From positions 47,784 to 111,783 of the forward strand of contig JAJYBI010000004.1 of NCBI GenBank assembly GCA_021779095.1: a stretch of DNA of 64,000 nt, read 5' to 3'. Of this stretch, positions 3,283-51,873 are shown in pieces. Source of the stretch: Deltaproteobacteria bacterium (lineage in GTDB: Bacteria; Desulfobacterota; Desulfuromonadia; Geobacterales; JAJYBI01). The notes under the pieces were generated by a model. It did no database searches, had not been told where the DNA came from, and worked only from the letters and a program-made list of their open reading frames with translations. A program made the translations under genes and the position numbers. Position 1 is the first letter of the stretch, and each line of letters starts with the position of its first letter.

Positions 3283-4689
3283 TCACGTGTGGGGGTAGTG
3301 TGAGGCAACCCGCTGGCTGACCCGGACGAACTGTCGGTAGGCATCTTCCGCAAGGAACGCCTCCGGCGAGCGGGTGCCGGTGGGGTGGACAAGCAGGGTC
3401 GCGTCCTGCCTCAGCTGGCCGCCGTACCCCGACAGTGTTTCGTTGACAAGCGCATGCAGCCGGTTGCGCTCCCGGCGGAGCAGGCCCCCGTCGAACTCGC
3501 GGAACGGCAGAGAGGATTCGGACTGGAGATCGCCGGTGAGCCCGAAATGCATGAACTTCACCTGGGGTTCATGACCGGCTGCATCGGGCCGGAAGACGAA
3601 CAGAGACTGCCGCGCAGCATCCTGCAGGACGAGCCGCGCCGGATCGTCGTCCCCAAGGTCTCTTCCCAGGTTGTAGACCGTCGTCAGCAGAAAATCCACG
3701 AAACAGTCTTCTTCCATGAACCCGCTGCTCCCACCGTCCGACGCTTCACAGTAGAACGCCGGCCGCTCATTCCCCATGACCGGTTTCCCGCAGAGCAGGC
3801 AATGTGGCCGAAGTCCGCTCAGGCGTGCCTGGAGTTCATCCCGCTTTCGCTGGTCTTCCGCCTCCAGCCACTGGTGGAACAGCTGCGCACGGGGTTCAAC
3901 GGTGACGGTGTATTCGTCCAGGATGGTGCGCGACAGCTGCATGAACTGGCCGTACACCTCGGTACCGCGCGCATAGCCGAAGATGGGATATACCCGTCCG
4001 TCCGGGTTGGTGTTGAGGCTTTCCACCTTGGGGCTCTTGGAGATATAGGTGTCGAGGCAGCGGTAGCCGCGGTTGATTGCATATGCCTTGAGCAGGGTCT
4101 TCTGGTCCTTGAACGGCCCGTCGAACTTGATCCGCTCATCCACCAGGCAGGGGATGAGGGTCAGGCTCTTCCGGTCGAGGCCGCGTTTGTCGAACAAGGC
4201 AAATATATTGCGGCAGTTCTCCATGCTCGCCATGTCCTTTACCGGGATAATGACCCGATCGGCTGCATAGAGGGCGTTCTCCGTCAGGATGTCCAGGTCG
4301 GGACGGGTATCGATGATGACGACACCAGGAATCTGGGACACGGCCATGAGCTGTGCCAGTACCATCGGTCCCTTGACGGTGCCCCTCAGCCTGTGGAGAT
4401 CGGTGGATGAGGGGATGAAATTCACCCCGTACTGCCCGGTATGAATCAGGTCGGCACCGGGAGCGCCGTGCAGGAGGTCGGCGACAGTGCCGCGCACCGT
4501 CTGCCCCTTGAACTCGAACATCCGGTCTACGGTGAAGTGGTTGTCGAAGGAGAAGATGGATACCGGCAGGTCCTCGTGCAACGCCTTGAGGAAGATTGCC
4601 AGGTTGGTTGCCAGGGTGGTCTTGCCGACCCCTCCCTTTTCGGAGGAGATGGTGATGACGTAGGGGAACGGATGCATGGCCGGCATCAT
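3283..4689 (-). CDS. ParA/MinD-family P-loop ATPase with ~200-aa uncharacterised C-terminal extension
   Basis: Deviant Walker A ITISSEKGGVGKTT lies right after the start MMPAMHPFPYV. This is the 3' part of the 890-aa track ORF; the upstream part of that ORF is antisense to xseA. The gene is divergent from xseA. Confidence 0.8.
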   Translation of the reverse strand: MMPAMHPFPYVITISSEKGGVGKTTLATNLAIFLKALHEDLPVSIFSFDNHFTVDRMFEFKGQTVRGTVADLLHGAPGADLIHTGQYGVNFIPSSTDLHRLRGTVKGPMVLAQLMAVSQIPGVVIIDTRPDLDILTENALYAADRVIIPVKDMASMENCRNIFALFDKRGLDRKSLTLIPCLVDERIKFDGPFKDQKTLLKAYAINRGYRCLDTYISKSPKVESLNTNPDGRVYPIFGYARGTEVYGQFMQLSRTILDEYTVTVEPRAQLFHQWLEAEDQRKRDELQARLSGLRPHCLLCGKPVMGNERPAFYCEASDGGSSGFMEEDCFVDFLLTTVYNLGRDLGDDDPARLVLQDAARQSLFVFRPDAAGHEPQVKFMHFGLTGDLQSESSLPFREFDGGLLRRERNRLHALVNETLSGYGGQLRQDATLLVHPTGTRSPEAFLAEDAYRQFVRVSQRVASHYPHT

Positions 4690-4779
4690 AATATGATTCG
4701 TCTGACCGGTCAACCGCTTTGACAGGCCGGTGCCGGTGTGGTAGAAACGTCGCGCAGTCAGATGGTTACGGAGGTTTCG

Positions 4780-6132
4780 ATGGATATTCTGGCGGAACGG
4801 CGCATCCTGAGCGTCAGTCAGTTTACGATGTTGGTGCGGGGGCTCCTGGAGGAGAACTTCGCCCATGTCTGGGTGAGCGGTGAGGTGTCCAACCTGGCGA
4901 CTCCCTCGTCCGGGCATCTCTATTTCACCCTGAAGGATGCGGGGGCCCAGCTTCGGTGCGTCATGTTCCGTGCCTCGGCCCGCGCCAGCCGGTTCCGTCT
5001 CCAGGACGGGATGGGGCTCTTGGTGCGTGGGCGGGTCTCGATCTACGACCAGCGTGGGGAATACCAGCTGATCGTGGAGTACCTGGAGCCCCAGGGTATC
5101 GGCGCCCTGCAGATGGCGTTTATTCAGCTGAAGGAGCGGTTGGCGAAAGAGGGGCTGTTCGACGAGGCCCGCAAACGATCCCTGCCTCCCTTTCCCCGGC
5201 GGGTCGGGGTGGTCACCTCGGCGACCGGCGCGGCGCTCCACGATATCCTGACGGTGCTGCGGCGGCGCAGCGCTGGGGTAGAGGTGCTCGTCTGTCCGGT
5301 GAAGGTGCAGGGGGAGGGCGCCGCCGCAGAGATTGCCGCGGCCATCGCGGACCTGAACCGTTACGGACAGATCGACGTCATGATCGTCGGGCGCGGGGGT
5401 GGCTCCATGGAGGATCTCTGGGCGTTCAACGAGGAGGTGGTAGCCCGGGCGATCCATGGGTCGAAGATACCGGTCATCTCCGCCGTGGGGCACGAGGTGG
5501 ACTTCACCATCGCCGATTTCGTCGCGGACCTGCGGGCGGCGACTCCGTCGGCGGCGGCGGAGCTGGTGGCGAAAAGCACGCTGGAGATGGGGATGGCGCT
5601 CTCGGCGCTCGTCCACCGGCTGCAGATCTCGATCCGGCAGCGGCTGGAGCGGAGCCGCAGCGACCTGCGGGGGCTGTCCCTGGCGCTGAAGGACCCGTTG
5701 CTCCTTGTGGGCCATATGGCGCAGCGAGTGGATGACCTGACCGGCCGTCTGGAGAGGACCGTGCAGACCGGCATGGCACGACGTGCCGAGCGGCTGGAGT
5801 CGGCCCGCAACCGGCTCCGGATACTGAACCCGCTTCTGACCGTGGAACGGGAACGGGAGAAGCTCGCCGCACTCCTCTCCCGTGCCGAACTGCTCCTGCA
5901 CCGGTCGCTGGTCGCCGGCCGGGAGGCTGCCGCCCTGCAGAGCGGGAAGCTCCATGCCCTATCTCCCCTGGCCACCCTGGCCCGCGGCTATGCCGTGGTC
6001 ACCATCGTCCCCGACGGCCGGGCAGTGAGGGACGGCGGGACCCTGCGGCCGGGTGACCGCCTGGATATCCGCTTTTCCCGCGGGCGTGCGGTCGCACGCG
6101 TCGAGTCCGCGGATGGCGGAGGCAATTCTTGA
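4780..6132 (+). CDS. xseA: exodeoxyribonuclease VII large subunit
   Basis: Begins MDILAERRILSVSQF... with an OB-fold N-terminus, a catalytic core and a long coiled-coil C-terminus. GGAGG lies upstream of the ATG at 4780. xseB follows immediately. Confidence 0.9.
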   Translation: MDILAERRILSVSQFTMLVRGLLEENFAHVWVSGEVSNLATPSSGHLYFTLKDAGAQLRCVMFRASARASRFRLQDGMGLLVRGRVSIYDQRGEYQLIVEYLEPQGIGALQMAFIQLKERLAKEGLFDEARKRSLPPFPRRVGVVTSATGAALHDILTVLRRRSAGVEVLVCPVKVQGEGAAAEIAAAIADLNRYGQIDVMIVGRGGGSMEDLWAFNEEVVARAIHGSKIPVISAVGHEVDFTIADFVADLRAATPSAAAELVAKSTLEMGMALSALVHRLQISIRQRLERSRSDLRGLSLALKDPLLLVGHMAQRVDDLTGRLERTVQTGMARRAERLESARNRLRILNPLLTVEREREKLAALLSRAELLLHRSLVAGREAAALQSGKLHALSPLATLARGYAVVTIVPDGRAVRDGGTLRPGDRLDIRFSRGRAVARVESADGGGNS

Positions 6133-6181
6133 CGCCTGTCGGCATTCGGTATAGTATAACACCCCATTTTACCGGAGAAGG

Positions 6182-6424
6182 ATGGTCCGCATGGCGGGAG
6201 ACAAGTTCGAGACATCGCTGAAGAAACTTGAGGAGGTCGTCCGCCGGCTGGAAAGCGGCGAGCTGTCGCTGGAGGAGTCGCTGAAGGCGTTCGAGGAGGG
6301 GGTGAAGCATGCCGGTGTGTGTGCAACCCGTCTCAACGAGGCGGAGCAGAGGGTAGAACTCCTCCTGAAGCGCAAGAACGGCGCCTTCGTACGTGAGGAG
6401 TTCCATCCGGACGAGGAATCCTGA
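6182..6424 (+). CDS. xseB: exodeoxyribonuclease VII small subunit
   Basis: 80-aa protein with FETSLKKLEEVVRRLESGELSLEESLKAFEEG, the typical XseB helix pair. It sits in the conserved xseA-xseB-ispA-dxs order. Confidence 0.9.
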   Translation: MVRMAGDKFETSLKKLEEVVRRLESGELSLEESLKAFEEGVKHAGVCATRLNEAEQRVELLLKRKNGAFVREEFHPDEES

Positions 6425-6463
6425 AACCGGCAGACCCTGCCATTTACGAAAGCGAGAACAGAA

Positions 6464-7357
6464 ATGGATCTGAAGACATATCTGAAAGAACGGTGCGCGC
6501 TGGTGGATGCCACGCTGAACGGCTACCTCCCCCCCGAGAATGAACTCCCCTCTTCCCTGCACAAGGCGATGCGCTATTCGGTATTCGCCGGCGGCAAGCG
6601 GGTACGTCCGATCCTGATGCTGGCCGCCTGCGAGGCGGTGGGCGGGGCGATCGAACAGGCGATGCCGGCGGCGTGCGCCATGGAGATGATACATACCTAT
6701 TCGCTCATCCACGACGATCTCCCCGCCATGGACGATGACGATTTCCGGCGGGGGACGCCGACGAATCACAAGGTATTCGGCGAGGCGACGGCGATCCTGG
6801 CCGGCGACGCGCTCCTGACCCAGGCGTTCATCCTGCTCGCCGATGCTGCTGCCGCAGCTGACGTGGACCCCGAGCGGCGGCTGCAGGTGATCCGTGAGAT
6901 TGCCGGCTGTGCCGGCTCCCGCGGCATGGTGGGGGGGCAGGTGGTGGACATGGAGAGCGAGGGGCAGCCGGAGATCGATCTCGCCACGGTCCAGTACATC
7001 CACACCCACAAGACCGGTGCCCTCATCAAGGCGGCGGTGAAGGCGGGGGCGATCCTCGGCGGGGCCGACGAGTCGGGAATTGCCGCCATCACCCGCTACG
7101 GCGAGGCATGCGGTCTGGCGTTCCAGGTCGCGGACGACATCCTGGACATCGAGGGGACGACGGAGGAGATCGGCAAGGACGCGGGGAGCGACCAGGCGCG
7201 GGGCAAGGCGACCTACCCGGCGGTGCTGGGGCTCGCGGAGTCGAAACGGCATGCGGCCGACCTGACGGATACGGCGATCAACGCCCTGGCACCGTTCGGC
7301 GACAAGGCCGAGCCGTTGAAGGAGATCGCCCGCTACATCGTGTACCGGAAGAACTAG
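6464..7357 (+). CDS. ispA: (2E,6E)-farnesyl diphosphate synthase / polyprenyl synthetase
   Basis: First Asp-rich motif is [17 protein letters not shown]; the second is FQVADDILD. Confidence 0.9.
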
Positions 7358-25062: not shown

Positions 25063-25530
25063 TCAGACGCCCCGTCGGTTATCGACCTTTCCGGCGCAGC
25101 GGGGGCAGCGGCCGGTGAAACTGATGGTGTAGTCGTGAATCTGGAATCCGTTGTCCACCGGTGTGGGGAGCGGTAAACGGTCGAGGGAGGGGTCATGCAG
25201 ATCTACCATCACGTCGCAGCCGGTGCATCGCAGGTGATGGTGCCGGGCGGTATCCGCGTCGAACCGGGCCCGCGCCAGCGGGCTGTTGATCTTCTGGACG
25301 ATGCCGTACTGCACGAAGGTTTCCAGGACACGGTAGACCGTGGTGCGGGAAACGCCGGGGATACGTGCCTGGACCGTTTCGAATACCTGGTCGGCGGTGG
25401 GGTGGTCCTTCCGTACGGCGAGCGATTCCATGATGGCCCGCCGTTGGACCGTCATCGGCAGCCCCTTGCTGCGGCAGACCTGCTCCAGTTCGTGCATCTT
25501 GCTGATGTGAAAGTCCGGATGCAATGACAT
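25063..25530 (-). CDS. Fur-family transcriptional regulator (PerR-like by context)
   Basis: Contains MTVQRRAIMESL..HPTADQVF..VSRTTVYRVL, then HHHLRCTGC and a C-terminal CPRC pair. It is the first gene of the peroxide-type operon. Confidence 0.85.
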   Translation of the reverse strand: MSLHPDFHISKMHELEQVCRSKGLPMTVQRRAIMESLAVRKDHPTADQVFETVQARIPGVSRTTVYRVLETFVQYGIVQKINSPLARARFDADTARHHHLRCTGCDVMVDLHDPSLDRLPLPTPVDNGFQIHDYTISFTGRCPRCAGKVDNRRGV

Positions 25531-25727: not shown

Positions 25728-25892
25728 TCAGTTCCGTCCTCTGGAGGAGATGAGCGTGGAATCTCTGCCCGGCGTGCGAGGTGCATCGACAGGAACTGCC
25801 GCTTTCTGCGGATGATTTCCTGTCAGGCGCCAGGCGATGGCCCACAGGGTGAAGCCGATAACTACCGTGATAAGGTCTTTCAGCAGGTCCAT
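25728..25892 (-). CDS. 54-aa single-pass membrane protein (hypothetical)
   Basis: ATG at 25892 lies 6 nt after a perfect AAGGAGG. Sequence is MDLLKDLITVVIGFTLWAIAWRLTG... with one hydrophobic helix. It has its own terminator downstream. Confidence 0.6.
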   Translation of the reverse strand: MDLLKDLITVVIGFTLWAIAWRLTGNHPQKAAVPVDAPRTPGRDSTLISSRGRN

Positions 25893-25920: not shown

Positions 25921-25970
25921 AAACAAAAAAGCCGGATTGCCGAAATCTGATGACATTTCGGCAACCCGGC
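25921..25970 (-). terminator. strong intrinsic terminator located inside the 5' leader of the 54-aa gene (attenuator/expression platform)
   Basis: On the minus strand: GCCGGGUUGCCGAAAU-GUCAUCAG-AUUUCGGCAAUCCGGC (16-bp stem, one G-U pair) followed by UUUUUUGUUUU. It ends 15 nt before the RBS. Confidence 0.8.
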
Positions 25971-26051
25971 TGTCTGCGTGAGACCCTGTAGGCTTTCCGC
26001 CCCATCCTCGCGGATGGTTTAGTATTATCGTGTATCATTTCTGTTTGGAAA

Positions 26052-44813: not shown

Positions 44814-44838
44814 TTGATGGTTTTCAGAGGTGAATGCC

Positions 44839-45288
44839 ATGAGGTCCAGCTATATAGTTTGTGTTCTTGTCGTCATCAGCATGCTATCCGCCGTATCCTC
44901 TTTCGCTGCGACGTCGGCCAGGCTTTATGTGTCGGCCACGGTTCTCCCCTTTGTCAGTTTCAATGCGGTTCAGCATGTGACGACCTATCGGGTGAGCAGT
45001 GATGACATCAAGAGGGGGTATGTCGACCTGCCGAATTCAATGACGGTCAACGTGCGGACAAACCTGGACGCAGGGGTCCCGGTAACCGTGGAAAATGCAG
45101 AGAAGGAAAGGGTGCTCGTCAGGGAGAGCGGTACCTCTGCATATATCGGCAACTCCTTTATGGTGAATACCAATGCCCATCTGCCCAATACCCGGATAAG
45201 CAAGAACCTTGACCTGCGGATAATTCTTTCTGCCGACGAAAGCGAAGGTATCCATGCAATTTCGGTGTCGATGACCCCGTCGATCTGA
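44839..45288 (+). CDS. secreted hypothetical protein, possibly a divergent pilin-like beta-sandwich subunit
   Basis: Signal peptide VLVVISMLSAVSSFA. The C-terminal GIHAISVSMTP resembles the G-x-Y-x-D-x-V-x-V-x-V/I-T-P ends of the three SCPU proteins downstream. Confidence 0.6.
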   Translation: MRSSYIVCVLVVISMLSAVSSFAATSARLYVSATVLPFVSFNAVQHVTTYRVSSDDIKRGYVDLPNSMTVNVRTNLDAGVPVTVENAEKERVLVRESGTSAYIGNSFMVNTNAHLPNTRISKNLDLRIILSADESEGIHAISVSMTPSI

Positions 45289-45538: not shown

Positions 45539-46183
45539 GTGAACGTTATCGTCGTCGAAGATACCGCGACTGTAAGGGCCATGCTTGTGGATCTGTTGAA
45601 GGCCAACGGCAGGCATAGCGTGGTTGCAGCCGTGGATCGGGTTGAAGATGCGCTGACGTACCTGGCAGGCGATAGTGCGGATCTGATGATCCTTGACCTT
45701 TGTCTTCCCGGACTTTCGTACGAAGCGGCTGTCAGGGCCGTTAATAATGCCAGCCCTGACCTGGAAATTCTGGTTTTTACGGTTTCGGAAGAGGAAGAAA
45801 CGGTTTTTTCGGCGCTGAAAGCCGGTGCTACCGGGTATCTGCTGAAGACGGCCCGGTCCGCCCAGATTATCGCCGCCCTCGACGAAATCGAGGCCGGTGG
45901 CTCGCCCATGTCCCCCTCCATCGCCAGGAAGGTGCTCCGTGAATTCCAGGGGGTGCCGGTCCATGAAGAGCTGCAGGGGATGATCTCTCCCCTTTCGGAC
46001 AGGGAGACGGAGATACTGGAATTGCTGTACCGTGGGCTTATCATCCAGCAAATTGCCGACAGGCTGTTCATCAGCCCCCTCACCGTTCATACCCATATCA
46101 AGAATATCTATGCGAAACTGCAGGTCAACTCGCGCTCCCAGGCCATATACGAGGCCGTACAGAAAAAATTGATCAAGGGATAG
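45539..46183 (+). CDS. NarL/FixJ-type response regulator (REC + LuxR-type HTH)
   Basis: Receiver acidic pocket VVEDT...[11 protein letters not shown] and a C-terminal [13 protein letters not shown]....IA..L.IS..TV..H..NIY.KL motif. GTG start follows GGAGG. There is no adjacent kinase. Confidence 0.9.
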
Positions 46184-46190
46184 GCATCAG

Positions 46191-46210
46191 AATACCCTCT
46201 TTAGGGTATT
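46191..46210. other. AT-rich hairpin/palindrome AATACCCT-CTTT-AGGGTATT after the regulator gene
   Basis: 8-bp arms and no U-run. It could be a weak terminator or an operator. Confidence 0.3.
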
Positions 46211-46291
46211 GAATAATCTGTTGATCAATGCGAAATTTGCGACACGTTCAGCTAGTTTTATGGGGCTGTCCGTGGCTCCGCACAAAATCAC

Positions 46292-46384
46292 CTCTCCGAT
46301 ACGAGCAAAACCAGGGTGACCTGGTGACGCAAAATCACGGATCCGCAATGGAAAGCGCGGATGGCCGGATCGCCGAAGAGAGAG
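46292..46384 (+). promoter_or_regulatory. GEMM-I (c-di-GMP-I class) riboswitch aptamer, copy 1
   Basis: CUCUCCGAUACGAGCAAAACC-AGG-GUGA-CCU-GGUGACGCAAAAUCAC...GGCCGGAUCGCCGAAGAGAGAG. The GCAAA, GNRA-capped P1b, ACGCAAA and closing CCGAAGAG elements occur in GEMM-I order. Confidence 0.75.
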
Positions 46385-46415
46385 TCGTTATCAGTCTTGT
46401 ACATTGGTAATCACT

Positions 46416-46450
46416 CCTGCACTTCGCGAGAAACTGCAGGATTTTTTTTG
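46416..46450 (+). terminator. intrinsic terminator (expression platform of riboswitch 1)
   Basis: CCUGCA...UGCAGG followed by AUUUUUUUUG. Confidence 0.75.
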
Positions 46451-46530
46451 CCATCTACATGAGAAACGGTGATGACCGGACGGAGGACGGCAGGAAGAGG
46501 CACTGTAATCGGTACAAAACAACAACCTAA

Positions 46531-46625
46531 CTCCGATAAAGGCAAAACCGGAGTAATCCGGCGACGCAAAGCCACGGGTCCATAACTTCACTAGATAGGG
46601 TGTGGATAGCCGGGTTACCGAAGAG
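46531..46625 (+). promoter_or_regulatory. GEMM-I (c-di-GMP-I class) riboswitch aptamer, copy 2
   Basis: CUCCGAUAAAGGCAAAACCGGA-GUAA-UCCGGCGACGCAAAGCCACGGGUCC...GGGUGUGGAUAGCCGGGUUACCGAAGAG. It closely matches the V. cholerae Vc2 core as I remember it (GGCAAACC..GAAA..GGGACGCAAAGCC...GUAGCGGGGUUACCGAUGG). Confidence 0.85.
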
Positions 46626-46674
46626 ACTGAGGAGTCGGGTAAGTTCGGACATCGGGAGATGTCCAACGAGGCAA

Positions 46675-46716
46675 AACGTTCGACTCCGCGCGAGAGGGTT
46701 GAACGTTTTTGTTTTT
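46675..46716 (+). terminator. intrinsic terminator (expression platform of riboswitch 2)
   Basis: AACGUUC...GAACGUU followed by UUUGUUUUU. The alternative pairing GGAGUCG (46631-46637) with CGACUCC (46681-46687) overlaps the terminator. Confidence 0.75.
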
Positions 46717-46852
46717 CTGCACGCGACGGCAGTACGAACGACGGCACAGGAGGTGACTGCACCGGAGTCTGCACGGCAGCCTATTTCATGTTGATATGCT
46801 GGAATCAACCCACTTCACCATCACGTAGTTAACCACCAAGGAGGGAAACGCA

Positions 46853-47299
46853 ATGAAAAAAGTAGTGGCAATCTCGGTAGCAGCAGCAATCGTCGCCATG
46901 GGTGGCACGGCAATGGCCGTTACCGCCGATCTCAGTGTCTCCGCAACTGTCGCCAGTGCCTGTTCCGTTACCGGTGGTACCCTCAGTTTCGGCGCATTGG
47001 ATACGTTGAACGCGCCCGCTGTGCCCGCAACATCATCCGGGGTAACCGTTACCTGCACGAAATCAGATCCGTACACGGTACAGGTCAACAACGGGCTCAA
47101 CGCTGTCAGCAACCAGGCGTATCTGAAAAACGCAACCAATACGGACACCATCCCGTATTCTTTGACGGTCCCTGCGTTATCAGCCGGCACCGGCAACGCG
47201 CAGACTATCGACATCGCGGGCAACATCGCCGCCGGGTCGTATAAGACCGCATCGGCCGGCACGTACAACGATACCGTGGTTATCACCGTCACCCCGTAG
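46853..47299 (+). CDS. spore coat protein U (SCPU)/Csu-type pilin subunit 1 (likely major subunit)
   Basis: Signal peptide. Cys pair SACSV...VTCTK. Contains FG.LD, IPYSL and the C-terminal AGTYNDTVVITVTP. AAGGAGGG RBS. Confidence 0.85.
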   Translation: MKKVVAISVAAAIVAMGGTAMAVTADLSVSATVASACSVTGGTLSFGALDTLNAPAVPATSSGVTVTCTKSDPYTVQVNNGLNAVSNQAYLKNATNTDTIPYSLTVPALSAGTGNAQTIDIAGNIAAGSYKTASAGTYNDTVVITVTP

Positions 47300-47383: not shown

Positions 47384-47845
47384 GTGATGGTTCTCGTGCG
47401 CACATTCATATGCATTGCCTTCATCCTCGTGACAACCGGTATGGGGCATGCCGCATCAACCACGGGGAATCTGGCCGTCTCGGCGTACATCACGGGGGTC
47501 GGCTATTGTGCCGTCAACCATACCCAGGATATTGCATTCGGTGTCCTTGATCCACTTAACCCTGCGAACGTTCAGTCATCAGGCAGTGTCAGCGTCGTGT
47601 GCCTCGGATTCGGCAGCGGTTTTACCGTCGGCGTGACCCAGGTGACGCCTTCCCCCCTCAGCCTGAAGAGCGGCGCCAACGAGATCCCCTATCAACTCGA
47701 ACTCCCCACCAGCGCCACCCGTACGTCGGGAGGTGTCATTGCCAGGCTTACCATCCCGATCACGGCAGACATCCGGGGGGCTGACTACAAACAGGCACCG
47801 GCCGGCTCATACACGGACAGGGTGACCCTTCAGATAACGCCGTAA
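47384..47845 (+). CDS. SCPU/Csu-type pilin subunit 2
   Basis: Signal peptide. Cys pair YCAV...VVCLG. Contains IPYQLEL and the C-terminal AGSYTDRVTLQITP. Confidence 0.8.
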   Translation: MMVLVRTFICIAFILVTTGMGHAASTTGNLAVSAYITGVGYCAVNHTQDIAFGVLDPLNPANVQSSGSVSVVCLGFGSGFTVGVTQVTPSPLSLKSGANEIPYQLELPTSATRTSGGVIARLTIPITADIRGADYKQAPAGSYTDRVTLQITP

Positions 47846-47958
47846 CCGGAATCTGGCGTGCAAGAACTATGGCTTGCCGTCGATGACTCCTCTCTGATAT
47901 GTTCCTCGCGGTGCGGGTGTGCCGCCCCATGCAGTTTCGGCTATGAGGAGAAGAATAA

Positions 47959-48753
47959 ATGACAGAAACGCTTTCCCATCGGCTTTTCAAAACGGCGATA
48001 TCCGTTCAGGCACTTTTTTGCGTGGTCTTCATTCTTCTGGTCATGTCTCCCGTCGACGGCTATTCAGGGCAATGGCGGGTCGCCCCTGCCCGTATCTATC
48101 TGGACCGTGATCTGAAGAGCAGCGTCATTACCGTGGTAAACGACGGGGACGAGAAGATCGATCTGCAGGGGAAGGCCATGGCGTGGAGCCAGGATGAACA
48201 GGGTAAGGATATCTACCGGGAATCGAATGATCTCGTATTTTTTCCCCGGATACTGATGATCGGAAAAGGCGGACAGAGGATCATCCGTATCGGGATAAAG
48301 AACCCGGAGGCTGCGCAGGAGAAGACCTACCGACTGTTCATCGAAGAGATTCCCCCCCCGCGAAAAAATCCGCTCGACTCTGCCCAACTGACGGTTGCCG
48401 TCAGGTTCGGAATTCCCGTTTTCGTCAAGCCGCTCAAGGAGGAGGTAAAGGGGGAGATCGCCCATGCCGAGCTTAAGAAGGGCCGTATCTCCATGACCGT
48501 CAGGAATACGGGCAATACCCATTTCAGGATCACCGACATCACCATGAAAGGCCGCGACGGCACGGGAGCGGAGACGTTTGCCACGAAGCTCAACGGATGG
48601 TACCTGCTTGCCGATGCCGCCAGGGAGTATGCTGCACCCGTTCCGCAGGATAAGTGTGTTGCGACGTCCCACATTGAGATAACGGTGTCGACTGATGAGA
48701 ATATTACGCTTACCGGGAACGTGAATGTGGAAAAGACGCTGTGCCTGCCGTAA
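47959..48753 (+). CDS. periplasmic pilus chaperone (PapD-fold, CsuC-like)
   Basis: Signal peptide followed by the typical chaperone pattern V.P.RIYLD......SVITV.N.G.E...LQ. A second Ig-like domain follows. Confidence 0.8.
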   Translation: MTETLSHRLFKTAISVQALFCVVFILLVMSPVDGYSGQWRVAPARIYLDRDLKSSVITVVNDGDEKIDLQGKAMAWSQDEQGKDIYRESNDLVFFPRILMIGKGGQRIIRIGIKNPEAAQEKTYRLFIEEIPPPRKNPLDSAQLTVAVRFGIPVFVKPLKEEVKGEIAHAELKKGRISMTVRNTGNTHFRITDITMKGRDGTGAETFATKLNGWYLLADAAREYAAPVPQDKCVATSHIEITVSTDENITLTGNVNVEKTLCLP

Positions 48754-51268
48754 CGCGCATGCTGACTCCGGCAGAGCCGGCTGGTTGCATTCCTTGTTCC
48801 TTCACACCCGTTCTACTCCGGCGCTCATCCTGGTCGTGGTGCTGTGCCTGCTACCCGCGCCGGCGGCGGCCGAACAGCTTGTCTGCAAGGTCGTCCTCAA
48901 TCAGGAATACAAGGGGGACCTTTTCGTCGACCGGACCGAACTCGGCGATTTCCTGGTGAAGGTCGACGACCTGAAGGAGATCGGCTTCAGGTCACCCCGT
49001 GGCACTTCTTCGCTGCATGACGGAGAAGAATACCTTTCACTGCGCTCCATGGACGGCGTCACGTTTGCGTTTGACGAAGGTGACCTCTCCCTTGCCATTA
49101 CCGCAGCCCCCGCGCTTCTCGGAAAAGAAGTCATCGATTTTTTCCCCAGGCAGCGCCAGAAAATCTACTATCCCCATGATGCAAGCGTATTTCTCAATTA
49201 TGGGGCCGATTATCAGGCCGGCGACGGTTTTTCATTCTCCAGCTTCAACCTGACCAATCAGCTCGGAGCACGAAAGGGCAACCTTCTTTTCCTAACCGAT
49301 ACCGATGTTTCCAAGGTGCCGGACCACGAACGGTTTGTCCGCCTGCAGAGCAGCTTCACCTATGATGACCGCAGGGGGTTGAGACGGTTCATCGTCGGCG
49401 ACTACTTCACTCCATCCGGTGATCTCGGCAGCAGGCTCAATCTGGGAGGGATCAGCTACGCCAAGGTCTACGGCATCGATCCGTACTTCATCAACTATCC
49501 GACCGTCGGTCTTACCGGCCAGGTCGCGCTGCCCTCGGAAGCGAAGATCTATCTCAACGGCATGCTGACGAAAACGGTAAAGCTCTCTCCCGGTGAATTT
49601 GAACTGGACAACATCACCCCCAGCGGCGCGGCGGGGGTGATCGATATCGTTCTCAAGGACCCGTTCGGCAGGGAACGGCACATCCGCAATCCATACTATT
49701 TTGGCGGCGCGTCTCTCTTGAAGCAGGGGCTCTCCGAATACAGCTACAACCTCGGATTCCTGCGCGCGCAGTTCGGGACGGACAGCAACCATTACTCCGA
49801 CCTGGCGTTCTCCGCCTTCCACCGGTTTGGCGTCAGCGACTTTCTGACGCTTGGTGTGAGAGCCGAGGCACGAAGAGAGCTGTATAACCTGGGGCCCCAG
49901 GCGACGTTCCTCTTGGGTACCGCCGGCCTCGTCAACCTGTCGCTGGCGGGGAGTACCGGACGGAGCTCCGATACCGGGGGGGCGGGTATCGTCTCCTACG
50001 TCTATCAGGGGCTGCACGCGGGGGCGAACCTCTCCCTTGCCGGCTTCAGCAGGCGGTATGCGAACATCGCCACCGCACCGTCAAGCGCTGCGCCGAGAAC
50101 CCAGGCGAGCGCAGGCCTGTCATATACCGACCGGTTGCTGGGCTCGCTGTCGGTTGGCTACTCGACATCCAGGACCTACGGGGGGGACAACAGGGATGTG
50201 GCGAGTGTCAGCTACTTCCGGAATCTGACCAATGCATGCTCCATCACCGCGACGTTTCGCAATGTTAAAGATACCGGCACCTCCAACGAGTTTTTCCTCG
50301 CCCTGAACTACTCTCCCAAGGTCGATACATTCGTTTCGGCCGGTTACCAGACCGCGAAAGACAGCAATGATGCCACGCTGGAGGTGCAGAAGAATCCCCC
50401 CGTCGGCGAAGGACTCGGTTACCGGGTTGTCCTCGACCGTTCCGATACGGCAGGCCAAACCGTTTCCACCGCAAACCCTTCCCTGCAGTACAACGGGCGT
50501 TACGGCATCTATCAGGGTGAATTCAACGGGCAGGTCAGTGCGGGACATTATGCCGGGTACTACCACCTGTCGACTTCGGGCGCCCTGGTCTATGTGGGGC
50601 ACACCTTCGGTGTTACCCGCCCGGTGTACGACAGCTTCGGACTCGTGAAGGTCGGAGACCTTCACGGGGTCAATGTACTGCTCAATGGACAGGAGGTCGG
50701 TTCAACCGACTCCTCGGGCAAGCTCTTCATCCCGAATCTCGGTTCATACTACCAAAGTCAGGTTGCGATTGACGACAAGCATATCCCCATCGACTATTAC
50801 CTCGCCAATGTCGTCAAACTGGTCTCGCCACCACTTCGAAGCGGGTCGTGCATCCCCTTCGTTGCGAAGAAAATGCAGATGATATCCGGCACCCTCAAGA
50901 TGAGGATACACGGAAAGATCAAGCCGGTGGAATTTCAGGAGGTCACCATTGCGGTCAACGGCAGGGAGATCACCTTTCCCACCGGTTCCGGCGGGGAGTT
51001 TGATATCGATCCCAGCCAGTCGGACGAACTCAAGAAACCTACGGAGGCGGAGGAAAACGGCTGCAATGCGGTTGTTGACGGGGCAACTCCTTTCATCCCG
51101 CCCGGTACCTATCGGGGAACGGTTGCCTACCAGGGACAGCCGCAGAGCTTTGCCGTGACGATCCCCGACCGACCGGACCAGATCATAGATCTCGGGCAGA
51201 TCGTGTTCGACATGGCTCCTTCGACCGGAAACGAACCGCAGGGGACCCCTGTGCCGGAACGCAGGTAA
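48725..51268 (+). CDS. outer-membrane fimbrial usher (PapC/CsuD-like)
   Basis: 847 aa with signal peptide LLPAPAAAEQ, the N-terminal L.V.LN....G...V........LV...DL...G. motif and a long beta-barrel region. It overlaps the chaperone gene by 29 nt. The start is uncertain. Confidence 0.8.
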   Translation: MWKRRCACRNAHADSGRAGWLHSLFLHTRSTPALILVVVLCLLPAPAAAEQLVCKVVLNQEYKGDLFVDRTELGDFLVKVDDLKEIGFRSPRGTSSLHDGEEYLSLRSMDGVTFAFDEGDLSLAITAAPALLGKEVIDFFPRQRQKIYYPHDASVFLNYGADYQAGDGFSFSSFNLTNQLGARKGNLLFLTDTDVSKVPDHERFVRLQSSFTYDDRRGLRRFIVGDYFTPSGDLGSRLNLGGISYAKVYGIDPYFINYPTVGLTGQVALPSEAKIYLNGMLTKTVKLSPGEFELDNITPSGAAGVIDIVLKDPFGRERHIRNPYYFGGASLLKQGLSEYSYNLGFLRAQFGTDSNHYSDLAFSAFHRFGVSDFLTLGVRAEARRELYNLGPQATFLLGTAGLVNLSLAGSTGRSSDTGGAGIVSYVYQGLHAGANLSLAGFSRRYANIATAPSSAAPRTQASAGLSYTDRLLGSLSVGYSTSRTYGGDNRDVASVSYFRNLTNACSITATFRNVKDTGTSNEFFLALNYSPKVDTFVSAGYQTAKDSNDATLEVQKNPPVGEGLGYRVVLDRSDTAGQTVSTANPSLQYNGRYGIYQGEFNGQVSAGHYAGYYHLSTSGALVYVGHTFGVTRPVYDSFGLVKVGDLHGVNVLLNGQEVGSTDSSGKLFIPNLGSYYQSQVAIDDKHIPIDYYLANVVKLVSPPLRSGSCIPFVAKKMQMISGTLKMRIHGKIKPVEFQEVTIAVNGREITFPTGSGGEFDIDPSQSDELKKPTEAEENGCNAVVDGATPFIPPGTYRGTVAYQGQPQSFAVTIPDRPDQIIDLGQIVFDMAPSTGNEPQGTPVPERR

Positions 51269-51408
51269 TAGTGCGCATCGGGGATGCCGTCCCGTTTTTC
51301 CTGACGGACACCTGCAGTGACAAGCAGTGTCTGGTAGAATCCTGGCAGGTTTGCCGACCGGCGAGCCGGCGCGATGTCGGCTGGAACAGCGAAGAAAGAG
51401 GTGGGTAC

Positions 51409-51873
51409 ATGGTGAAATTATGCAGGGTACTGATTGTCGCGTCGTTGGTGTTTTGTGCCGGCAGATGCTATGCGGTTCATTGCAACGTGTCCACGACACC
51501 CGTTAGCTTCATGAACTACGATGTCTTTTCGCTGTATCCTCTCTATTCGACCGGCACGATCGCGGTAAGCTGCAACAACCCCGACAAAAATCCGATGCCG
51601 GTCACCATTGCCGTCAGCAGCGGCGGCTCCGGAACGTTTAACCCGAGGCAGATGAAGGCGGCAGCCGGGACCGATCTCCTCAACTATTACCTGTATACCA
51701 GTGCTGCGCGGACGGTCATCTGGGGGGACGGCACCGGCGGCACCTCCACGGTCACCAACAACGTGTCCAGGAATTTCCCCTGGAACGCAACGATCTTTGG
51801 TGCCTTACCCCAGCGTCAGAACGTGAGTGCGGGGAATTACCACGACATAGTCGTGGTAACGGTCATGTGGTGA
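51409..51873 (+). CDS. SCPU/Csu-type subunit 3 (possible tip/minor subunit)
   Basis: ATG at 51409 follows AGAGG. Signal peptide. Cys pair HCNVS...VSCNN. Contains LNYYLY, VIWGDG and the C-terminal AGNYHDIVVVTVMW. Confidence 0.8.
   Translation: MVKLCRVLIVASLVFCAGRCYAVHCNVSTTPVSFMNYDVFSLYPLYSTGTIAVSCNNPDKNPMPVTIAVSSGGSGTFNPRQMKAAAGTDLLNYYLYTSAARTVIWGDGTGGTSTVTNNVSRNFPWNATIFGALPQRQNVSAGNYHDIVVVTVMW

Follow-up and report, generated by a model that had tools for sequence, protein, structure and literature searches.

The stretch of DNA analysed here, referred to as the window, comprises 64,000 nucleotides (nt) of contig JAJYBI010000004.1 from a deltaproteobacterial genome assembly (GCA_021779095.1) and contains a Csu-like archaic chaperone-usher operon preceded by two GEMM-I riboswitch aptamers in tandem (Table 1). 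The pilus operon lies downstream of a response-regulator gene (45539-46183), and its proteins matched the Pfam families SCPU three times (E 1e-19, 1e-8 and 1e-25), PapD_N (2e-15) and Usher (4e-16). Judged by Pfam domains only, it is akin to two other archaic chaperone-usher systems, the Acinetobacter baumannii Csu pili and Mcu, the spore-coat-protein-U system of Myxococcus, each of which joins SCPU subunits and another SCPU protein to a PapD-like chaperone and an usher within a single operon. Each aptamer of the leader is followed by one intrinsic terminator, and no gene lies between them. The first-pass annotation of this DNA had described such tandem GEMM-I elements, each with its own terminator, before a Csu/SCPU operon, and the Rfam and Pfam matches together with the predicted folds bear this description out. 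Tandem GEMM-I terminator riboswitches almost certainly control the pilus operon.

Table 1 Features of the riboswitch leader and the pilus operon in the window. P1, P1a and P1b are helices of the GEMM-I fold, and positions 20, 47 and 92 follow the Vc2 numbering.
Feature	Coordinates	Strand	Details	Basis
Riboswitch 1 aptamer, GEMM-I fold	46291..46384	+	P1 46291-46298 with 46374-46384; P1a loop GUGA; A47 = 46331, C92 = 46373	RF01051, R1 model, helix covariation
Position-20 equivalent of riboswitch 1, A (GEMM-Ib / c-AMP-GMP signature)	46304	+		Alignments to RF01051 and RF03168; column 14 of aptamer alignment A2
Predicted antiterminator of riboswitch 1	46370..46429	+	Excludes P1 and T1	Folding
Intrinsic terminator T1	46415..46449	+	Stem 46415-46441, UCCUGCA / UGCAGGA, with inner UUC-GCGA-GAA hairpin, then U8 46442-46449	Sequence; minimum free energy (MFE) and centroid folds
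5' arm of predicted anti-P1 helix: 5' flank and P1 5' strand of riboswitch 2	46525..46534	+	ACCUAACUCC	MFE folds; duplex p 0.003-0.08 versus shuffles
Riboswitch 2 aptamer, GEMM-I fold	46531..46625	+	P1 46531-46535 with 46619-46625; P1a loop GUAA; G20 = 46541, A47 = 46568, C92 = 46618	RF03167 best clan match, R1 model
Switch segment S2	46631..46640	+	GGAGUCGGGU; two partners, 46525-46534 (anti-P1) or, via 46631-46637, 46681-46687 (antiterminator)	Sequence, folds, conserved complementarity
Spacer hairpin Y	46647..46664	+	GGACAUC-GGGA-GAUGUCC; enclosed by antiterminator 2	Folds; compensatory changes in three pairs among orthologues
Intrinsic terminator T2	46674..46716	+	5' strand AACGUUCGACUCC, 3' strand to ~46706, then UUUUUGUUUUU to 46716	Sequence, MFE fold, compensatory changes in orthologues
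Ribosome-binding site (RBS) and first SCPU pilin gene	46840..47299	+	GGAGG 46840-46844; gene 46853-47299	Open reading frame (ORF) list; Pfam SCPU E 1e-19
Rest of the operon	47384..51873	+	SCPU pilin 47384-47845, PapD-type chaperone 47959-48753, usher 48725-51268, SCPU protein 51271-51873	Pfam

Identification of the aptamers and of related leaders

The whole window was scanned against 4227 Rfam families, and for the GEMM-I clan (CL00126) the threshold was the family gathering score over the full model, which is 35 for RF01051 and 59 for RF03167. The upstream aptamer (copy 1) matched RF01051 at 46294-46377 with 55.3 bits (E 4e-8), and the downstream aptamer (copy 2) reached 65.0 bits (E 4e-13) at 46532-46623 with RF03167 as its top clan match, both over the full model length. 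Thus, the two aptamers placed by the first-pass annotation at 46292-46384 and 46531-46625 were recovered, and the Rfam check that it had proposed gave scores above the gathering score for either copy. A covariance model built in this analysis (R1) scored copy 1 (46291-46381) at 89 bits and copy 2 at 93.7 bits. The canonical motifs listed earlier are likewise present in both copies, namely the GNRA-capped hairpins (GUGA in copy 1 and GUAA in copy 2), the ACGCAAA motif and the closing strand CCGAAGAG.

Relatives were gathered by aligning chaperones (alignment A1) against genome and metagenome contigs, which was needed because the usher protein by itself yielded no relatives in a contig scan, and the resulting loci (numbered L002 to L159 in the text) were then searched with Rfam and the R1 model. 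The nearest named homologue of the chaperone is that of Syntrophotalea (Pelobacter) carbinolica, with 59% identity. The same tandem leader, with the same terminator layout, was found before orthologous operons in eight further loci from Geobacter/Pelobacter-like metagenome genomes (L002, L003, L004, L005, L009, L083 (= L084, L085), L086 and L088), and the gene order of the operon is the same in related loci. The tandem arrangement upstream of a Csu-type pilus operon is therefore a feature shared by nine loci, the window included.

Across 15 related aptamers, helices P1a and P1b showed two-sided changes in 13 of 18 pairs. Aptamer helix cells were paired in 95% of cases against 20-43% with a slid partner, and 0 of 500 shuffles matched the observed values. 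Because the helix covariation exceeds both slid partners and shuffles, the aptamers are real and under selection. A different view would be that one copy is a decaying duplicate without a regulatory role, in line with the closest relatives by chaperone identity (L155-L159), which have a copy-1-type switch only. We regard this as very improbable, since the Rfam thresholds are clearly exceeded in each case, neither copy has lost any pocket or helix feature, and both are conserved with their terminators in the nine loci.

In the closest relatives, a conserved element of ~150 nt (CCUGAC..GUCAGG ... CAUAGGAGGUGAAAG.AUCG ... CUUUCGCUG) occupies the place of riboswitch 2. It lies at 2040-2180 in L075 and at the equivalent place in L078, L079, L081, L082, L155, L156, L157 and L159; the elements of L075 and L078 gave no Rfam match at E <= 1. 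Of this element, the window retains only the AGGAGGUGA string (46748-46756) within the 136 nt that separate T2 from the start codon. The usher in L155, L156 and L159 (genes ~3964-6996) has ~1000 amino acids (aa) and a C-terminal OmpA domain; the 847-aa usher of the window has no OmpA domain.

The two aptamers differ at position 20

The fold of both copies is that of Vc2 from V. cholerae (RF01051), with helices P1, P1a (capped by a GNRA loop) and P1b plus the cores ACGCAAA and GCCGAA. Unlike Vc2, both window copies work through intrinsic terminators that lie well downstream of the aptamer. In Vc2, G20 pairs with one guanine of cyclic di-GMP (c-di-GMP) and strongly discriminates against cGAMP (3',3'-cyclic GMP-AMP, also c-AMP-GMP), at 10 uM versus pM (PMC6140456; PMC9481103). 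An adenine at this position binds cGAMP and defines the cGAMP-sensing GEMM-Ib subclass (PMC6140456; PMC9481103), although A20 aptamers can bind c-di-GMP through a protonated adenine and some natural ones are bispecific (PMC6140456).

In the RF01051 alignment, the equivalent of Vc2 G20 is the unpaired base directly 5' of the paired GC in 'GGCAAA'. On this basis position 20 is A46304 in copy 1 (...UACG-A-GC-AAAA) and G46541 in copy 2 (...AAA-G-GC-AAAA). The c-di-GMP pocket triad G20/A47/C92 of Vc2 is thus complete in copy 2 (G46541, A46568, C46618), whereas the pocket of copy 1 reads A-A-C (A46304, A46331, C46373) and departs from that triad at position 20. The first-pass annotation had assigned G to the Vc2 G20 equivalent in both copies, and this was off by one nucleotide because the nucleotide immediately before CAAA corresponds to G21, which is paired, and not to G20. 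Its preference for c-di-GMP as the ligand of both copies is not supported for copy 1 either, given A20 there and an A/G split that is kept in orthologous tandem leaders. Position 20 of copy 1 is A in seven of the eight readable tandem loci (G in L086, masked in L002), and that of copy 2 is G in 9/9. The covariance-model alignments make it very probable that the signature of copy 1 is that of GEMM-Ib (3',3'-cGAMP type), and a difference in ligand preference between the two copies is slightly favoured. As regards cGAMP synthesis by a Hypr GGDEF or DncV-type enzyme, no GGDEF domain turned up among the scanned ORFs of the window, which were part of the ORFs in 64 kb only.

A second difference had been raised earlier as a possible sign of distinct ligands, namely ACGCAAAAUC in copy 1 against ACGCAAAGCC in copy 2. 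The two strings do differ, but they form the basal pairs of P1b rather than the ligand pocket. In the Rfam-scan alignment the change is from A:U to G.U and from U:A to C:G, and since it is compensated on the 3' strand of P1b, the ligand pocket is unaltered by it.

Assignment of copy 2 to the c-di-GMP-I-GGC variant (RF03167), its best-scoring model, was considered and rejected, since A46568 (GACGC-A-AAGCC) stands where the RF03167 consensus has G, even though the score passes the threshold. The distinguishing G at position 47 (ACGC-G-AA) was derived by comparing the three clan consensus sequences in the Rfam-scan output. From these consensus sequences, the clan variant names appear to encode positions 20, 47 and 92, with G-A-C as the canonical form, 'GGC' denoting G at 47 and 'UAU' denoting U at 20 and 92. 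With its G-A-C triad, copy 2 is therefore best described as a probable canonical c-di-GMP-type aptamer that resembles the deltaproteobacterial sequences behind RF03167.

Expression platform of riboswitch 1

The antiterminator predicted here pairs UCGC.GAAGAG, which contains C92 and the P1 3' strand, and GAGU.GUUAUCAGU with ACAUUGGUAAU.ACUCCU...CUUCGCGA, which holds the T1 5' strand. Folded alone, this structure has -19.9 kcal/mol (z -2.7), and 2 of 200 shuffles were as good. The MFE fold accommodates the copy 1 aptamer and T1 together with a hairpin X that lies between them (46382-46393 with 46405-46416). Transcripts ended just before the T1 3' strand were folded for the window, L003, L004, L005 and L009, and in 5/5 loci the MFE structure placed the C92/P1 3' strand (GCCGAAGAG) on the T1 5' strand, stacked on hairpin X. 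Forcing P1 closed ruled out the antiterminator pairing in these five loci and worsened the fold by 3-8 kcal/mol. The T1 strand reads CUCCUGCACUUCGCGA in the window and CCCGUCUUUGG in the relatives, and both are in-register complements of the invariant aptamer strand CCGAAGAG.

These folds suggest that, in unliganded riboswitch 1, the P1 3' strand and the C92 region would pair with the T1 5' strand, stacked on the intervening hairpin, and block T1. Ligand binding would lock P1 and exclude the antiterminator so that T1 could form. Because the antiterminator needs the P1 3' strand and the aptamer and T1 are compatible, helix exclusion predicts an OFF switch. This predicted design, with aptamer and terminator compatible and an antiterminator that draws on the aptamer-closing 3' strand competing with them, is the one described for Cd1, the OFF switch of a flagellar operon in Clostridioides difficile (PMC9262584), and we infer a Cd1-type OFF switch for copy 1. 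However, Cd1 differs from copy 1 in having G20, sensing c-di-GMP, acting as a single switch and controlling flagella in a Firmicute. An ON mechanism for copy 1 was sought by hand and by folding, and neither complementary segments for it nor a ligand-dependent antiterminator was found.

The window also contains a third GEMM-I aptamer at 25957-26033 on the minus strand (RF01051, 46.7 bits), with A at position 20. In this element (25925-26033, minus), the 5' strand of the terminator is the 3' half of the aptamer itself, which points to a pilM-like ON design that contrasts with copy 1. Downstream lie an RBS and a 53-codon ORF (25730-25891, minus) with a hydrophobic N-terminus and no Pfam match, followed by a Fur-family gene (25063-25530).

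Expression platform of riboswitch 2

The construction of the second platform is different. The P1 3' strand of copy 2 has no complementarity to T2; the segment S2, which contains GGAG and lies just past that strand, is predicted to complement the P1 5' strand better than the P1 3' strand does. Just after S2 has been synthesized, the resulting anti-P1 helix is the MFE structure in 9/9 loci, 7-10 kcal/mol better than closed P1. The alternative partner of S2 lies in T2, where the pairing of 46631-46637 with 46681-46687 (GGAGUCG:CGACUCC) is exact. This competing pairing had been pointed out in the first-pass annotation as overlapping the terminator of copy 2, and it also appears in the folds. Regional folds contain this antiterminator 2 with -25.2 kcal/mol, a value that none of 200 shuffles reached (z -3.4), so that modelling of the aptamer/terminator alternatives, as suggested there, supports an antiterminator for copy 2.

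Before the T2 3' strand is synthesized, the state with P1 and antiterminator and the state with anti-P1 and a free terminator strand differ by <= ~4 kcal/mol, and this near equality is what a switch needs. When P1 of copy 2 was forced, antiterminator 2 formed in 5/5 loci. The anti-P1 and antiterminator 2 duplexes were better than shuffled partners in most loci (p 0.001-0.08), and the S2 helices had 89-91% of cells paired across orthologues, compared with ~40% when the partner was slid. Antiterminator 2 is preserved in the window, where its extension lies on the other side of the invariant GGAG:CUCC core than in the relatives.

In the unliganded state, S2 would displace P1 by forming the anti-P1 helix and leave T2 free to form, whereas in the liganded state P1 would hold and the freed S2 would pair with CUCC in the T2 5' strand as an antiterminator. 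Since ligand-held P1 frees S2 for the antiterminator, the folding predicts copy 2 to be an ON switch. An OFF mechanism was sought for copy 2 by hand and by folding; no supporting complementary segments and no P1-strand antiterminator were found.

Combined logic of the tandem riboswitches

By helix-exclusion logic, the different construction of the two platforms implies opposite directions of switching. The first-pass annotation had proposed two sequential ligand checkpoints; the two switches indeed stand in series, while their likely opposite directions, as predicted by folding, had not been considered there. Whether the two copies do act in opposite directions we rate at about even odds from the folding models. 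Our preferred reading, to which we assign a probability of about 0.5, is that two independent GEMM-I terminator switches stand in series, with copy 1 (A20) acting as an OFF switch and copy 2 (G20) as an ON switch. Transcription of the pilus operon would then require riboswitch 1 to be free of ligand and riboswitch 2 to be bound, and the net logic in its simplest form would be 'NOT cGAMP AND c-di-GMP'. The A20/G20 pair is read directly from the aligned sequences, and the gate logic is a prediction. Such logic fits the roles reported in Geobacter sulfurreducens, where cGAMP promotes growth on metal-oxide particles, and c-di-GMP promotes biofilm and inhibits the cGAMP synthase (PMC6456294).

Heterotypic sensing could also be combined with a single direction, with copy 1 responding to cGAMP and copy 2 to c-di-GMP and both acting as ON switches (AND) or both as OFF switches (NOR). 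In G. sulfurreducens, all GEMM-Ib-controlled genes fall upon deletion of the cGAMP synthase, so the known GEMM-Ib members are ON switches (PMC6456294), and the direction calls made here are in silico only. Against a common direction, folding revealed neither an antiterminator that depends on ligand in copy 1 nor one made from a P1 strand in copy 2, and the ON-type third GEMM-I of the window, with its terminator overlapping the aptamer, is plainly unlike copy 1. On balance we consider a common direction with two ligands improbable.

Likewise, both aptamers might sense c-di-GMP in the same direction, forming a homotypic doublet that sharpens the dose response in a pseudo-cooperative, 'digital' manner. 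This is the interpretation given to known c-di-GMP-I tandems, which outnumber those of every other riboswitch class (347 doublets and 12 triplets; PMC9481103), and it would accord with the c-di-GMP binding of some A20 aptamers noted above and with G20 in both copies of L086. However, copy 1 has A20, which is kept in seven of eight tandem loci, and the platforms differ, with the P1 3' strand serving as antiterminator in copy 1 and S2 competing for the P1 5' strand in copy 2. A same-ligand doublet is therefore an unlikely account of this leader, if a little less so than heterotypic sensing in one direction.

Several points weigh against the preferred OFF-then-ON reading. Both direction calls are computational and derive from nearest-neighbour folding and from complementarity kept among the orthologues. 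In covariation tests, anti-P1, antiterminator 2, hairpin X and antiterminator 1 showed high pairing and almost no two-sided changes, and because the orthologues are too alike, covariation neither proves nor disproves these alternative helices. At full length, the terminators were the thermodynamic winners in every state of the folding, so the model needs kinetic control. The duplex of the copy-1 strand with T1 taken alone gave p 0.002-0.31 against shuffles (p 0.1-0.3 in several loci), a weak outcome because a purine-rich strand pairs with any pyrimidine-rich partner. A sigma-70 scan of the plus strand found no promoter anywhere from 45900 to 47000, upstream of copy 1 included, and placement by eye also failed.

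The remaining points of this kind concern the ligand of copy 1. The tandem of L086 is G/G at position 20. Among lone copy-1-type switches, which have the same platform and precede orthologous operons in the closest relatives, G20 occurs in L075, L081, L156, L157 and L159, and A20 in L077, L078, L079, L082, L155 and L158. Since position 20 varies between G and A in copy-1-type switches, the ligand of copy 1 may not be strictly cGAMP, and with G20 in copy 1, c-di-GMP would act as an OFF signal at copy 1 and an ON signal at copy 2 of one mRNA. In L086, the first aptamer (526-615) has G20 and is combined with an expression platform that matches that of the A/G loci in other respects.

This toggling, together with the G/G tandem of L086, implies either that ligand identity flips easily in the lineage or that the A20 forms are bispecific. 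If they are bispecific, the tandem would be a c-di-GMP band-pass filter, in which copy 2 turns on at low c-di-GMP and a weaker or bispecific copy 1 turns off at high c-di-GMP, with the operon expressed only at intermediate concentrations. The opposite platform designs agree with such a filter, as does the finding that A20 reduces but does not abolish c-di-GMP affinity (PMC6140456; PMC9481103). Nevertheless, A20 in seven of eight tandem loci better fits a distinct ligand, and Geobacter A20 aptamers have a reported ~1000-fold selectivity for cGAMP (PMC6456294). The band-pass filter thus appears unlikely, though it is the least unlikely of the alternatives considered. In its widest form, the proposal is that paralogous aptamers in a single mRNA leader compare the two GGDEF-derived messengers of Geobacter-like bacteria, with an OFF cGAMP-type aptamer vetoing transcription licensed by an ON c-di-GMP aptamer and a natural c-di-GMP band-pass filter as a near variant; we offer it tentatively.

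Comparison with known riboswitch systems

Copy 1 is similar to the Geobacter GEMM-Ib riboswitches (Gs1761 pgcA, Gm0970 pilM) in A20, in its Geobacter/Pelobacter-related host and in its surface-structure target. The described members are ON switches in which the terminator overlaps the 3' half of the aptamer (pilM; PMC9262584), a design found in the third GEMM-I of the window. Copy 1 is unlike them in its separate terminator and P1-strand antiterminator, which predict an OFF switch.

The c-di-GMP-I doublets and triplets of Sherlock et al. 2022 (PMC9481103), such as the triplet of Bacillus thuringiensis, resemble the window pair in that aptamers of one family with their own platforms share one 5' leader, and tandem GEMM-Ib switches also occur in G. 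sulfurreducens (PMC6456294). Those doublets and triplets have been treated as same-ligand and same-direction, whereas the window pair differs in a pocket base and is predicted to act in opposite directions. Two-input 'NOT A AND B' gates, for example those that combine an adenosylcobalamin (AdoCbl) riboswitch with c-di-GMP-I or c-AMP-GMP in Desulfobacca acetoxidans (PMC9481103), place OFF before ON, each with its own terminator, as is predicted for the window. The window differs in that its two paralogous aptamers, which share one fold, would each take a cyclic dinucleotide as input, and no such pair is in the gate table of PMC9481103. The literature searched, which did not include the two founding GEMM-Ib papers, described no c-di-GMP/cGAMP gate pair and no OFF-acting A20 GEMM-I, nor did the literature searched describe riboswitch control of Csu-type operons.

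Promoter region and upstream neighbours

In L003, the stretch from the U-run of T2 to the start codon is only 43 nt long and offers scant space for a promoter past the riboswitches. A few bases past the stop codon of the NarL/LuxR-type response-regulator gene, the window has an inverted repeat, AATACCC-N6-GGGTATT (46191-46210). It is kept with a variable centre in L155, L156 and L159, the last of which has two copies ~120 nt apart. We take it to resemble a 7-2-7 NarL-type binding site, and it may mark the promoter region of the pilus leader. A conserved palindrome absent from the window, GTCTGGTATCGACAG(A/G)C, lies ~15 nt upstream of riboswitch 1 in L003 (2350-2366) and L004 (2404-2420) and at the equivalent place in L005, L009, L083, L086 and L088; an extended -10 promoter (TGGTATCGA) may include it, or a protein may bind there.

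Further upstream, a 152-aa ORF (44830-45288) without a Pfam match is kept in every checked related locus that reaches far enough, with 26-55% identity. In L006 and L089, this ORF has a GEMM-I aptamer of its own upstream, with A20 in L006 and G20 in L089.

Biological significance

Tandem GEMM-I riboswitches are common and are read as sharpening the response to one messenger, so if the direction calls made here are wrong, the leader would be an ordinary one, that is, one more GEMM-I doublet before a pilus operon. The more interesting content beyond the basic identification is the conserved A20/G20 pair with its differently wired platforms. If the wiring is opposite, the leader would be a compact, directly testable natural two-input gate or band-pass filter made from one aptamer fold, and copy 1 would be the first OFF-acting GEMM-Ib. 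In G. sulfurreducens, cGAMP leads to transient association with metal-oxide particles and c-di-GMP to permanent biofilm, two opposed lifestyles (PMC6456294). Through the conserved leader, the balance of c-di-GMP and cGAMP would then set one surface structure by RNA only, and the adhesive pilus would be made only at high c-di-GMP and low cGAMP, the 'committed biofilm' state.

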